DNA of 62,843 bases, counting the filler, from Collodictyon triciliatum (Eukaryota), in the NCBI GenBank assembly GCA_043381765.1. It is 6 parts of 6 records of this genome, joined end to end, with 100 filler letters (N's around TTAATTAATTAA, not from the genome) between each part and the next. Parts side by side here need not be neighbours in the genome. Positions count along the whole stretch, not along the records: positions 11,365 to 22,605 come from JBHJMP010002451.1; 5 more parts are not named here. One strand, written 5' to 3'. A model generated the notes under the pieces. The model had not been told where the DNA came from. It searched no databases and was given only the letters and a program-made list of their open reading frames with translations. Both the position numbers and the translations under genes were made by a program. Each line of letters starts with the position of its first letter. The first letter of the stretch is position 1. Below are positions 12,900-18,947 of the stretch, piece after piece.

Positions 12900-15800
12900 A
12901 TGAAACCAGAACGTTACAAGTCGGTCAAACCTGACGAGCCGTGGCTTCAGTATACTTTGATTAAGCTGGAGGTATTACAAAAAGTCGGAGTGTCGATCAT
13001 GCTTTTGATTATCGTGGGAACATTTATTTCATGCGTTGTTCTTGCATCGATGGGTATGTCGTTATCTTACTGGTACCAGCCATAAATATGAAGTACTGTT
13101 CAGTATATCACATGCTGCTTTAATGATAAGTCCACTCTTTATGATGCTAGTGATGTGCTGATGTTACTTAAATGATAAATAAATGCGTTTCTCTTTTCAT
13201 TCATTTTTTCCACCCACTGAGCGTGAATATATAACTACGAACTCATCGACAGAGAGAAAAATAGAGAAACCAATATTATAACCATAGATAAAAATCAGTT
13301 ATGTAATTTCTTTAATGTATATTGATATTCATCGAAGACACCGAGATTAGATTGCATAAGAAAAATTTAGCCGGCACTCCCTGCACAGCAGAATTACAAG
13401 ACAGTTGCCACTACATCGTAATACCGACTTATTTTCCCTATATTTTGCAGACAATTCTAGAATACCAGGAAAACTAGAATCATATCCAACTAAATTATGA
13501 TAATAATAAAAAAAATCTCAAAGGAAAATGGCAAGATGATATATACATTCGGTATTTCGAATCTGTCTGTGCTTAGCAAATATGTCTATGGAATTGGGAA
13601 AATTAAATTACAAAGAGACCAGGTCGTAAAAGAAGAAATTTATTATCAGGTACTATCATGCGGCTTCGTGCCCTCCCTATTCAAAGAGCGCGATAAAGAA
13701 ACATATCTAAAAAGAAAAAACTAGCTTAACCCATTTAAGGATTTTCCCGCCTTTTCTCTCTTGTTTTAGGTCCAAATATTTGGAAGAGATTCGATAGCGG
13801 AATCCTGGATTGAGAAAATGAACGAGGATTTCACCATGAATATTTCTTGCAATAAAGTATGACATTTTTATCTACTTTCAAAAGTAGATACAATTATAGT
13901 CTTGCGCATTTAACGTAAATGTCCCCATGACCAATTCGATATATATGCCTGTGTATGGATTGTCCATTTCCATTTATTTGGGACACTCGCAGAGAGGTGA
14001 CTACTGTCTGGACCATATTATATTTCTATTCAGTCCGATAGAAAATAAACAGCTACGATTCAACATAACAATCGAGGAGGCCTACCTAGGAATTGAGGGG
14101 GACACGGAGTATCAAGTGAGAAATAAAAGAAAATTATCCTGAAACTCTGGTGTATTTTTATCGCCTTTCCCCTCACACATATATATGTATTTATATTACC
14201 CTCTCAATGGTTGACCGATAAAAGCAATTCGTTATACTCGTAGGTATATTGGCAAAAGGAATCGTTTACTGTAATAACGTTCATTTTCTTGGTTATCTTT
14301 TTCATGTGTGCGCTCTCATTTCTGATTGCGTATGTCCGATCGGTTAAAATTGACCATGACCATCCCCATCCTGAACAAAGGTGAATCCAAGACCCATTCA
14401 TGAATATACTTTATCTTGTTATGATATCAATCTCACAAAATATCCTTGCGATTGATATGATTTCCACCCAGGTGGATTTCATTCCTTGTTGGAGCTTGCA
14501 TATTTATGAATCGCATCAACGAAATTCCCTCTATCATCACTGGGGAGGAGTCGCTGATTATCCTTTCCCTTGTGTCGAATATACTCTCCAGTGTTATTTT
14601 CTTAGTCGTATTTATGATTATAATCGAAGAATTAAGGGTAATATTGGCTAATATATGTCATTTATTTGTTTAAAATCGGTCGAAAAACAATATAACTTTA
14701 TCTTTTTCGTTTCCTTCCCTCGTTGTGTGCTCTTATTGCTTTAAGTTATTGCAACTTCTTGTTTCACACAAATTAAAGAACGCACTCTAATTTAGCGCCC
14801 CGAAATGAAATACACGACTAGTTTTTTCGTCTATAAGGTTTTATATGGGGCCATTACTTTCTCTGTTGCAGTGTCAGCCCAGCTTATCAAAATGACGGAG
14901 TTACCCCCTGGACTGAGGTAATGCATATGGATGAGTAATCGTTGCAAAGCGCAATATACCTATGTGTATTTCAATTAACATCTGCCTGTTGTACATAACA
15001 GCTTCACAGACTTCTTAAGTGATGATCAAACAATTCCAAGAGTTGGTTTTAAGTCTCCATTCCACTACCAACATCCAATATTCTTGATGCTGTCTTTGTG
15101 CTTGGAGAAAAACAGCAAAATAAAAATACAATACAATACAATACAATACAATACAATACAATACAATACAATACAATACAATACAATACAATACAATACA
15201 ATACAATACAATACAATACAATACAATACAAAAATGAGTTTATCCATTTTCTATATGTTTCAGGACGAGGAGGCCTTCAAGGCATATGCAGGATTGACGA
15301 TTCTCTTGGGTTTCATTTATTTAGCTTGGATTTTATGGTACATTAAAAGAATAAGGTATTCTTTAGGTTAAAATTTCATCTAAATTATTAAATCGTACAT
15401 ATATTTACCATAATTAAATCATTTAATACGATATAATTTTACTTTAAAACATACCGCTCTTCTAAACAAAGGGAATTGAGGAATTTCTTGAAAGGAACGC
15501 CGTTTATTCTTACTCGATTTCGTCAACTTTCATTCCGGTTGTTTCTAATCCTGGTTGGTTAATAGAATAACTATAATTTTAAAAGTAAACTGCATGCAGT
15601 AAAGAGTGAACAAAAATCATAAATAATGATAAATAATGATAAATAATGATAAATAATGACAAAAATCAAATAAAATATCATAGAAAAAGCTAAAAAAAAA
15701 AAAGAGTAAAAAAATACTTGATAAACTTTAGTTAAATTGATTGTGTTAATGCTATTGATGTTTTTACCACAAACTGTAGATCACTTTCAGAAAAATTTAA

Positions 15801-18800
15801 GACTTCATTAAAACGACATCATATCTCTTTTCTAGAATTAATTTCATATGACATCTTTACAAATTCAAATGTAGGGGTTCTTCTATTCCATCTACTTTAT
15901 TATATTGGTCATCGAATCATATAGCGAATTTAATTACGGAATCGCCGAGGACAGACCTCTTTCCTCTCTTATCCTCTACAGGTTTACTTCTATTTGTATG
16001 CATTTTCGCTATAATAGATATTCATCCACATAAAGCAATCATACTTCTGTGAACACTTGTAGAACCGAGCAACCAATTTTATTCATCATTGCCCCGTTCA
16101 ATTCAATTTTCTAAAGTAACATAAAATAAACCTAGTGTATACATCCTAATATTGGGCTATGTTTACCTTCCTGTAGACTCCAAAGATATCAGTAATTTTA
16201 CGATATCATAAATAAACCTTCTAAATTAAGATTACACTGTCCTCGTCTTTAAAATTATGCCTTCTCCCATAGTTACACTTGGATTGGAGCTTGGATTTTC
16301 AAAGTACGGTGCCAAGTCTGAAACTAAGCTCATTGGACCTGACCCCTCTGATGACTGCTTCAAAGATAATCGATTTTATGTCCAGACCGCTAAAAACCTC
16401 TCCTGGATTTCATTAAAGGTAACTACACAACGTGATTTTTTTTTTATCATATGCTTTCTTTGCCCCAGTTTCTGTCGGAAACTTTTAATATTACATTATA
16501 AAAAGTCTAGCCTTTTTTTTTTTTGTCCGGTTATCAATATAAATAATGCGCATTGTCGTTTCAGGTTTACTTCGAACCAGGTGCCCCTGATGGAGAATTC
16601 TTTCGCAAGGAAAGTGTCTGTTTCCGTTTACTTTTCTTCCTCTTTTCTTTCCCTTAAAATTTAAGATTATGGATGTATGATCTTTCCCCTCCTCCCTCAT
16701 AGACGCTCATCAAATTATTATACTAAGGCATACTTATATATTCCAGGCTATAATTGAAGAGAGTATTCATTTTCTACAGCGCGAATACGAATACCAAGTA
16801 ACATATCTGCCAAATTCTAAAAATCTACGAATTTTGTGGATGAAATAAGAAATTTGCACAACATATCCTGTTCAAAACAGACTTTAATTATGAACATGCG
16901 ACCAGCTCAACTATAAATACCTTTCTAAATATAAGGATATCGCACTTCTTTCTGGACCTCTTGTCCATTCTTGTTCATAGGAAAAAATCTTTGATGAAGA
17001 GAGTGACACGCATGCATACATATTTGTCAGTGGAAATCGGATTGTTGTCGCATTTCGCGGGACAAATTCTGTTGTTAACGCAAAAACAGATGCTGATGTT
17101 TTCCGTTGTGACTGGGCACCATCATTGAATGGGAGTCGAGCCAGGTAGCTTTTTCTATTTACTCAATATAAACCTTGCAAATAGCTTCCAAAATATTTGA
17201 AATGTGCACATAAGTGTTATTATAGCAGTCACCATTTCATTTTGAAAAAAAAAATGCCAGGAGGACTTTCTCTAGACTTCGATTGCCCCATGGTATTGTC
17301 GACACTGTCGCTCCCATGTCTGTTCATAGAGGATTCTTTACGTCCTACTGGTTAGAGTTCTTAACACTTTTTTTTTTTTGTTGGTTGTAACCTCCTAATT
17401 GATTTAAGTATTGATCCTCTCTCTCTCTCTCTCTCTCTCTCTCTCTCTCTCTCTCTCTCTCTCTCTCTCTCTCTCTCTCTCTCTCTCTCTCTCTCTCTCT
17501 CTCTCTATCTTAATTCAATGAAGCAAAATTAGAGAACTGATGATAAGAAAAGTGGGCGAACATGCATCCAGAATTAGAAAACAAAGCTTCGAACCTGTTA
17601 CGATTCTTGTGACTGGACATAGCCTCGGTATCATTCGATGATGATGATGATGATGATGGAGGATCATTACTATTTTTAATATAGAAATGATTATATACAT
17701 AATATTTACCTCGAATCTTTCAAACACGCGACTGATCTATAATTGAGATTGATATACACACGTTAACAGGAGGTGCACTGGCAACTTTTGCAGCATTAGA
17801 CATAGCAGAGATGCACTTATTGAACACCAAGGTTGTCATGTACAATTTTGGTTCTCCTCGTGTTGGGAACCATTCATTTGCAGATTACTACAATGCAGCC
17901 GTCCCAAATTCGTACAGAATAACTGGAGACCAAGATATTGTCACATCTCTTCCTAAATTCATATTCTTTTTCAAACACATAGGCAATGAGGTATATTTTA
18001 ACATATTGCTTCTTCTTTCTCCATATTAATGAGCACCTTAAATTAAAATTTCGGATTGCGTCAATATGGCTTATAGGAGACAGGATTGTTTTAATTACTG
18101 TTATTATTATTATTATTATTATTATTATTATTATTATTATTATTATTATTATTATTATTATTATTATTATTATTATTATTATTATTATTATTATTATTAT
18201 TAGGTAACAGTTGATCCAGACGGAAATGTTCTTTTAAAGATGACCTCGTTTGAGCGGTTTTTACAAACAAAAAACAGCCTCAACAACCATCGAATTTATT
18301 GTTATTTCAATGCTGTAAGCCTGTGCCTTGAAAAAGTCTCTCACAAGTATGTATCTGAAATGGGACCAGAGAGCAAACCTGAGCTGAATGCCAAAGATTT
18401 GATCACCTGTATCCTTCCGATATCAATGGATACGACTCAGAGCCACATGTTGGATGAAAGTAAGCTCGGTGTGAGAGTGTACCTCTCTGATACAACGGAC
18501 GAGGACCAACAAGAAAGAGATGAGGAACTCGAATTCTCTAAAGTTAGCCAAGAAAGTTTATATTCCACTCCACAACCTTTCGTACAGACTTTCGGGAACT
18601 CTGTTGGTCTACCAGTCAATTTGTCTGCTTCATCCCCAGACCTTTTTCAAAAACGTCCAACCATCAGTAAACAACCGCTGCTTTTAAAGAGTCTCTCAGG
18701 GACTGTGCACGCAGCTCCGTCGAGACCAGGTCGGTCCATCTATCGAACCGAAGTCCTGTCGCAAGTCATCCGAGGTCAAGACACACTCTTGGCGCACAAG

Positions 18801-18947
18801 TACGAGGATGAAAGTGGACTCCTGCTTGCTTTGGGAGGGGTGATTGTGGATGAATCTAGAACAGACGAGAATGACAAGGAAAGAGAAGGAGAATTTTTTC
18901 ATACAATCACAAATTTCTTCAGGAGAGATGCGAAAGATTCAGCATGA
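12900..18947 (+). CDS. TMEM181/Wntless-like multi-pass membrane domain fused to a class-3 lipase
   Basis: N-half: IKLEVLQKVGVSIMLLIIVGTF, ISCNKRGDYC, HPEQRWISFLVGACIFMN, FILTRFRQLSFRLF, VYILILGYVYLP. C-half: IVVAFRGT, VHRGF, ILVTGHSLGGALA, YNFGSPRVGN, DQDIVTSLP, KHIG, NNHR. Exon phases link the halves in frame (VYLPVDSKDIITLG...RFYVQTAKNLSWISLKVYFEP). Some early small exons are ambiguous. Confidence 0.85.
15125..15230. repeat. (CAATA)n intronic microsatellite
   Basis: Direct read. The same gene has (CT)n at 17418-17505 and (ATT)n at 18101-18202. Confidence 0.95.

Follow-up and report, generated by a model that had tools for sequence, protein, structure and literature searches.

Among the GOST proteins only Wntless (WLS/GPR177) has a clear job, and its client is confined to animals while the fold is far older; to our knowledge Wnts are animal-specific, and we know of no Wnt client outside animals. 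A lipase joined to a membrane domain is familiar from diacylglycerol lipase (DAGL), a cytosolic class-3 lipase with four helices and no GOLD domain. DAGLA and DAGLB begin with a transmembrane (TM) part, followed by the lipase domain and a long regulatory tail, as described in the available part of PMC5690672. Fusions of a seven-helix (7TM) receptor to an enzyme are represented by the G protein-coupled receptor (GPCR) bigrams of oomycetes and protists (GPCR-PIPK, -INPP, -AC, -PDE and -TKL); a lipase type is absent among the types listed in the available parts of PMC6033456 and PMC5784254, and the main text of the latter contains no word beginning with 'lipase'. A GOST protein with an enzyme domain is likewise not mentioned in the available parts of PMC9711517, PMC12716839 and PMC11605061. 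Here we describe such a combination in a 62,843-nt stretch of DNA from the protist Collodictyon triciliatum (assembly GCA_043381765.1), referred to as the window and made up of several contigs joined by N spacers. The gene at 12900-18947, which lies wholly within one contig (G000:C2451), encodes a TMEM181/Wntless-like membrane domain followed in the same reading frame by a class-3 lipase with an intact catalytic triad, and this architecture is widely conserved among eukaryotes.

A three-frame reading for GT and AG sites gave a model of 21 exons encoding a protein of 980 amino acids (aa) in a single open frame, with the sole stop at its end. All 20 introns are GT..AG, with lengths of 81-321 nt. 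The features of the gene are as follows.

12900..18947, + strand: whole coding span, TMEM181/Wntless-like 8-TM domain plus class-3 lipase (open frame, GT..AG introns, RNA-derived contigs for introns 10-12 and 14-20, exon-by-exon match to a paralog)
12900-13053, 13338-13417, 13524-13649, 13770-13856, 13993-14115, 14244-14380, 14472-14637, + strand: exons 1-7
14796-14917, 15002-15041, 15264-15355, 15472-15553, 15875-15981, 16136-16191, 16273-16418, + strand: exons 8-14
16565-16615, 16747-16797, 16981-17144, 17261-17350, 17524-17627, 17770-17990, 18204-18947, + strand: exons 15-21
12900..13053, + strand: exon 1, with the cytosolic N-terminus, a conserved 'LE' motif and TM1, the extra N-terminal helix of WLS and TMEM181
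13338..14115, + strand: exons 2-5, luminal GOLD-like beta-sandwich, aa 52-190, with 4 Cys and 3 N-glycosylation sequons
14244..16191, + strand: exons 6-13, seven-helix bundle TM2-TM8, aa 191-457 (homolog profile; WLS match of a proxy model)
15512..15529, + strand: TRFRQL motif in the third cytosolic loop and start of TM7, a candidate lipase docking site
16192..16272, + strand: junction intron between membrane domain and linker, 81 nt, GT..AG, phase 1
16273..18330, + strand: exons 14 to the start of 21, linker of ~35 aa and class-3 lipase domain, aa about 490-775 (PF01764 match, family profile, spliced RNA contigs)
17621..17623, + strand: catalytic Ser658 in GHSLG, a motif interrupted by intron 19
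17934..17936, + strand: catalytic Asp715
18288..18290, + strand: catalytic His762
18331..18947, + strand: poorly conserved C-terminal tail, ~200 aa

The motifs named in a first-pass annotation of the locus all lie in this one frame and in the order claimed: TM1 in exon 1, the luminal cysteines in exons 2-5, EQR/WISFL (aa 234-241), TRFRQL (390-395), YILILGYVYLP (441-451), GHSLG (656-660), and finally D715 and H762. In the model, the in-frame splice that it proposed joins the two halves, at an intron bounded by 16192 and 16272 rather than by 16195 and 16273. The C-terminal tail gave no match in a Pfam scan and is unaligned in homologs, with 43% identity between its last exon and that of the paralog; judging from low values of the predicted local distance difference test (pLDDT) in the tail of a modelled homolog, P0040, it is probably disordered and cytosolic.

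Three runs (X1, X2 and X3), none on record as RNA, were compared with positions 15232-18098, a stretch that takes in introns 10-20. The X1 and X2 contigs can be taken as transcript-derived because spliced joints are present in them, while X3 gave nothing over 15232-18098. Splicing of 10 of these 11 introns (10-12 and 14-20) is seen in the RNA-derived contigs, seven as listed joints (10-12 and 14-17), introns 18 and 19 through adjoining pieces of one contig, and intron 20 through a loose end that continues in exon 21; the joints flanking TRFRQL on both sides are present. Contig depth is about 3.5 on the N-terminal half, where contigs are only 160-203 letters long, and 5.5-10 on the lipase half. 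Both halves are transcribed and spliced; over 16192-16287 the depth falls to zero in each of the three runs, which is evidence neither that the halves are joined nor that they are separate.

The evidence for the junction comes from comparison with other genes. A paralog on G000:C107 follows the window model along its length, exon by exon, and has, at the position of the junction intron and in the same phase, a GT..AG intron of 83 nt with an unlike sequence. The 67 codons flanking the junction comprise 21 that are identical between the two genes, 30 with synonymous and 16 with non-synonymous changes. At a third locus of the genome (C1983), TM1, bundle and lipase pieces occur in order on one strand, so that fusions account for three of the eight lipase loci as far as seen; the other five have no clear bundle in the stretches examined, three of which reach contig ends. 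Because the junction intron is kept in the paralog and the two domains share a single chain in 118 of 152 homologs, the N-terminal half and the lipase are, on this comparative evidence, one gene and the fusion is real, in agreement with the first-pass claim. An AATAAA in the junction intron was considered as a sign of a 3' end and rejected, as 7 of the 20 introns carry one.

Intron 9 (15042-15263, + strand), 222 nt long, contains an (AATAC)n repeat and is open in frame; its retention would add 74 residues to a luminal loop. One X1 contig enters the last 40 nt or so of this intron while being spliced further on; the paralog's counterpart has an immediate stop, and the read-in is therefore probably chance or unspliced precursor.

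The relationship of the membrane half to TMEM181 and Wntless runs via homologs. The single exons of the window gene miss PF06664: none of the 10 N-half exon pieces matched it singly, nor did the locus in a six-frame search of the genome. Against profiles built from 73 homologs, with the window protein excluded and 200 shuffles as the null, the 7TM part scored 126.6 bits (best shuffle 4.0) and TM1 with the luminal part 36.7 bits (best shuffle 3.5). PF06664 is over its cut-off in 21 of 46 and in 2 of 5 homologs, and under it in another 3 of the 46, Lipase_3 being present in all 46; the closest homolog of the window protein, P0040 (N-half E 3e-31 among about 200 sequences), reaches 91.7 bits. The family profile matched human WLS over GOLD and TM parts (E 7e-14) and TMEM87A (1e-5) in the PDB; a profile is needed for the WLS match, a single-sequence phmmer search of the PDB with the P0040 N-half having given 0 matches. 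With alignment A1 as the query, a word-indexed search gave nothing beyond one of the query's own members. Comparison of the fused family with a stand-alone TMEM181 (P0194) by hhalign gave 99.4% over 402 columns, direct similarity of the window protein to P0194 being weak (7 bits), and the nearest Atlas clusters are TMEM181/WLS-like (0.93). Gene structure agrees with this relationship: 4 of 12 N-half introns, including that after exon 1, share codon and phase with those of a stand-alone TMEM181 gene of the same genome (L016), a count that 0 of 200000 random draws reach.

An AlphaFold model of P0040, used as a proxy for the window protein, has a pLDDT of 82.6 and a predicted template modelling score (pTM) of 0.83, and contains TM1 (H13-35), a beta-sandwich (residues 42-188), seven helices and the lipase. 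Its four best Foldseek matches are WLS; over residues 6-447 it aligns with human WLS (7kc4_B) at Z 23.8 and a root-mean-square deviation (rmsd) of 4.2 for 401 residues. The whole human WLS chain is thus matched by the proxy, and together with the profile, hhalign and intron evidence this bears out the Wntless/TMEM181-like assignment of the N-half. The luminal part of the window protein (137 aa, 4 Cys) is GOLD-like, the proxy's beta-sandwich being aligned with that of WLS, and hydropathy and alignment place in the window protein the additional N-terminal helix, eight TM in all, that is a feature of WLS and TMEM181 according to the available part of PMC11605061.

Compared with TMEM181 (PF06664 WLS-like_TM plus PF21885 TMEM181_GOLD), the fused family has the same TM1, GOLD domain and seven helices in order, but ends in a lipase where TMEM181 ends in a short tail, and has an extra insertion with PY..TR..QL before TM7. 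With Wntless (PDB 7KC4, 7DRT and 8TZR) and the GOST proteins it shares the fold at only ~13% identity. In a tree with thin outgroup sampling, the window protein clusters with P0040 among the fused proteins, outside which both stand-alone sequences fall. By these sequence relationships it is a member of a paralogous subfamily and not a TMEM181 orthologue; stand-alone TMEM181 genes, at least two of them, are present elsewhere in the genome.

These genes without a lipase are L016 (G000:C4674, 559-3500) and L017 (G000:C3726, 215-3260), the latter with a second copy of its first exons at about 7224-7764 and left out of the intron and tree counts. By alignment, exon 7 of the window gene (14472-14637) has no counterpart of the NP motif that follows TM3 and retains its proline in 114 of 119 family members; a short insertion that shifts the alignment may account for this.

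The lipase half is intact, as had been claimed from GHSLG, the Asp and the terminal His. Exon 20 alone matched PF01764 (E 2.8e-14, 53.7 bits against a cut-off of 22), and the window lipase scored 250 bits against the family profile; NCBIfam gave only weak matches to the region, far under cut-off. The triad S658/D715/H762 is kept almost throughout the fused proteins (Ser in 119/119, Asp in 117/119 and His in 110/119), in which RGT and HxGF motifs are also near-invariant. The lipase of the P0040 model matches a fungal class-3 enzyme at Z 27.9, and the comparison with Rhizomucor miehei lipase (4TGL), Aspergillus feruloyl esterase (1UZA) and plant PLA1 shows the same fold (Z 27-28, rmsd 2.3-2.7), GHSLG elbow and triad. 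These enzymes are soluble and mostly secreted, whereas the fused lipase would form the cytosolic tail of a polytopic membrane protein. One family member, P0075, has two GHSLG motifs.

The fusion is not an oddity of one protist but belongs to a large and wide family. Exon 20, used as a query, led to five longer proteins; PF06664 and PF01764 occur in one chain in two of them, one of these already labelled with both domains by JGI. A profile of the five was compared with 1.84 billion representatives and the best 150 matches were taken, so that family counts are lower bounds. Among the 152 proteins examined, at least 118 combine a lipase with a full seven-helix match; the bundle is partial in 19 and lacking in 15. 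An organism was given for 16 of the 30 clusters looked up: Pythium, Aphanomyces (two clusters), Thraustotheca, Cafeteria, Triparma, Chlorarachnion, Norrisiella, Paulinella, Porphyra, Creolimax, Sphaeroforma, Chromosphaera, Phalansterium, Paramoeba and Euglena longa; the exon-20 search adds Saprolegnia and Achlya. We take these to represent stramenopiles (oomycetes included), Rhizaria, red algae, Holozoa (ichthyosporeans), Amoebozoa and Discoba. Animals, fungi and land plants do not appear among the named matches listed, most rows carrying no name. Several fused homologs are transcript assemblies, and the Euglena one is marked complete. In the Atlas, a cluster of 53 'hypothetical proteins', for the most part from oomycetes, has PF06664 on 23%.

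Within the limits of thin outgroup sampling, the sequences suggest that the fusion arose once: an R..[QH]L motif, represented by TRFRQL in the window protein, is found in 98 of 119 fused proteins and in neither of two stand-alone TMEM181 proteins, bundle and lipase distances are correlated (rho 0.34; best of 200 shuffles 0.11), and in the tree the two stand-alone sequences are separate from the fused ones. Transfer, or contaminated single transcriptomes, could also lie behind the spread. A clade of 14 members (P0126, P0117, P0112, P0129, P0123, P0143, P0099, P0118, P0079, P0134, P0137, P0114, P0148 and P0130) has only 13-41 residues between TM1 and TM2 and lacks GOLD; P0082, with a 1-residue lumen, is a weak TM1 call and was not counted. 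The model of the Porphyra member, P0130 (pTM 0.78), is without a GOLD domain, yet its match to WLS reaches Z 21.8. From these alignments and models, the conserved core appears to be the bundle plus a docked lipase, GOLD being common (79 of 94) but dispensable. A Paramoeba transcript stands beside Porphyra in the GOLD-less clade and may reflect transfer or contamination.

Both models (P0040 and P0130) have eight TM helices. Both WLS and TMEM87A have their GOLD domain and cavity on the luminal side, with the cavity closed towards the cytoplasm (PMC9711517, available part). Since eight helices put both termini on one side, we infer that the lipase lies on the cytosolic side, opposite the Wnt acyl-chain cavity and GOLD. 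The window protein agrees with this predicted topology in its third inner loop (7 K/R against 1 D/E), its acidic luminal loops and the sequons of its GOLD part. Among well-conserved bundle positions (60% or more), 18 of 20 are on the cytosolic half, and the family-specific part of this conservation is the third inner loop. The pTM of 0.83 (P0040) and 0.78 (P0130) exceeds the share of the largest domain (0.51 and 0.40), implying that the relative placement of the domains is a confident part of the prediction. As an indirect hint of docking, structural alignments of both models to free lipases include the foot of TM1 beside the lipase.

The explanation that we favour, with about as much doubt as confidence, is that of an endomembrane lipase docked under a Wntless/TMEM181 bundle and acting on cytosolic-leaflet lipid in the manner of DAG lipase. 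The eight-helix bundle would anchor the protein in an endomembrane, perhaps Golgi or endosome by analogy, and would hold the Ser-Asp-His lipase against its cytosolic face through the family-specific cytosolic motifs LE (foot of TM1), PY..TR..QL (third inner loop) and LP (after TM8). By analogy with DAG lipase, the enzyme may act on glycerolipids of the cytosolic leaflet by cleaving their acyl esters, diacylglycerol and phospholipid both being candidates, with the bundle supplying location, orientation and perhaps substrate presentation. Here the lipase activity, substrate and organelle are assumed, and topology and docking are predicted from the homologs. The four-helix membrane domain of DAGL differs from the eight helices of the window family, which are of the unrelated Wntless fold. 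Several observations weigh against this explanation. The junction is uncovered by RNA contigs; stand-alone TMEM181 shows much of the same cytosolic conservation, which is in part a property of the fold; the models are of homologs, come from one shared alignment and were judged without predicted aligned error or coordinates; an Atlas model of a third member has a pTM of only 0.58; and the linker varies in the family from 9 to 377 residues (median 48). Moreover, the luminal domain is at least 100 residues long in 79 of the 94 members with detectable TM1, and a mere anchor would not need one.

The main rival, which we consider rather improbable, is a receptor-lipase of the bigram kind, in which a luminal or extracellular ligand, or a lipid in the cavity, shifts the bundle and switches the docked lipase on or off, so that a lipid messenger is made directly; such a mechanism has been proposed for the GPCR-PIPK, -PDE and -AC fusions of oomycetes. 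The third inner loop is the effector-coupling face of GPCRs, and the family-specific motif sits there; the domains are confidently packed in the models, and most members keep GOLD. The layout is also that of the bigrams, a 7TM part and an intracellular catalytic domain (PMC6033456, available part), given the topology predicted here, and both groups are patchy but wide in eukaryotes. The 7TM part of the fused family is of GOST type, that of the bigrams a GPCR. No GOST protein is shown to signal in the available parts of PMC12716839 and PMC9711517, and direct activation is called unprecedented for bigrams in that of PMC6033456. Conservation is poor in the luminal half of the bundle, which holds 2 of the 20 conserved positions, and 14 members have lost GOLD. 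A broader version, which we regard as speculative and doubtful, is an ancient receptor-lipase class, in which the bundle would have existed since early eukaryotes both alone and with a covalently docked lipase, switched or fed according to the occupant of its lipid cavity. If this broader reading were true, Wnt carriage would be a late use of a lipid-sensing fold, and the stand-alone TMEM181 of animals may still work with a separate cytosolic lipase.

An unlikely alternative is a channelling unit, in which the lipid-open cavity of the bundle moves a lipid or fatty acid between leaflets, to or from the cytosolic lipase. The fold match to WLS fits this proposal, as do cavities of WLS and TMEM87A that open to the luminal leaflet and hold phospholipid-like density, but the TMEM87A cavity is sealed towards the cytoplasm (PMC9711517, available part). 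Very unlikely, in our view, is a deacylase for luminal cargo, in which lipid-modified cargo carried in the lumen would have its acyl chains removed or exchanged by the lipase. The homology of the N-half is genuine, and WLS binds palmitoleated Wnt via GOLD and cavity (PMC9711517, available part). The lipase, however, follows TM8 and would be cytosolic, across the membrane from the cargo site, and GOLD has been lost in the 14-member clade; a hydrolase for acylated luminal cargo is unlikely for these reasons. The first-pass suggestion that this fold handles lipids or acylated cargo together with a hydrolase may hold for lipids, whereas acylated cargo is topologically hard. A search of the genome for Wnt gave no match, and a control search was equally silent.

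Plant EDS1 and PAD4 use a lipase fold without needed catalysis, and a non-catalytic scaffold or ligand-binding role of this kind could be envisaged from their presence among the structural relatives (Z about 20) and from the long insertions within the lipase domain of some members, such as that of about 170 residues after the nucleophile helix in P0005. We consider it highly improbable, given that the triad, RGT and HxGF are near-invariant and that true lipases score higher (Z 27-28). Two adjacent genes, a TMEM181-like one ending at a stop near 16210 and a lipase starting from an in-frame ATG at 16257, are scarcely credible: the want of RNA contigs over 16192-16287, the difference in depth between the halves and an in-frame ATG upstream of exon 14 in both paralogs would fit, but the ATGs are at different places in the two paralogs, the gap would be only about 45 nt, the junction intron is kept in place and phase with synonymous changes outnumbering non-synonymous ones around it, the 118 single-chain homologs include some from transcript assemblies, and C1983 repeats the order of pieces on one strand.

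We found no description of the Wntless/TMEM181-lipase architecture in the literature searched, which comprised main texts only, so that tables of domain combinations in oomycete or protist genomes could list the pair. Both parts are known families and their pairing is visible in automatic annotation (the JGI label and the Atlas cluster); the architecture is widespread and undescribed in that literature, the nearest described kinds being the 7TM-enzyme bigrams and DAG lipase, with its different membrane fold. A conserved enzyme fusion gives the Wntless/TMEM181 fold an assayable output for the first time, and the natural GOLD-less members are a ready control for GOLD dependence. If the bundle regulates or feeds the lipase, this would offer a clue to TMEM181 and its relatives in animals, and a new type among the 7TM-enzyme fusions of microbial eukaryotes.

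Other long frames occur in the window. Tail to tail with the fusion gene, at 19319-22066 on the minus strand, lies an intronless frame of 915 codons with many hydrophobic segments and two similar halves, both ending in an RR..P..C..R..(R/K)LPLV-like stretch; Pfam and NCBIfam gave no match. On contigs other than that of the fusion gene there are long intronless frames at 58247-61628 (minus strand) with pieces of an ABCG-type transporter in a GC-rich (57-59%) stretch, and a long intronless frame at 50555-52246 (plus strand) that encodes a NIDO and LRR protein.

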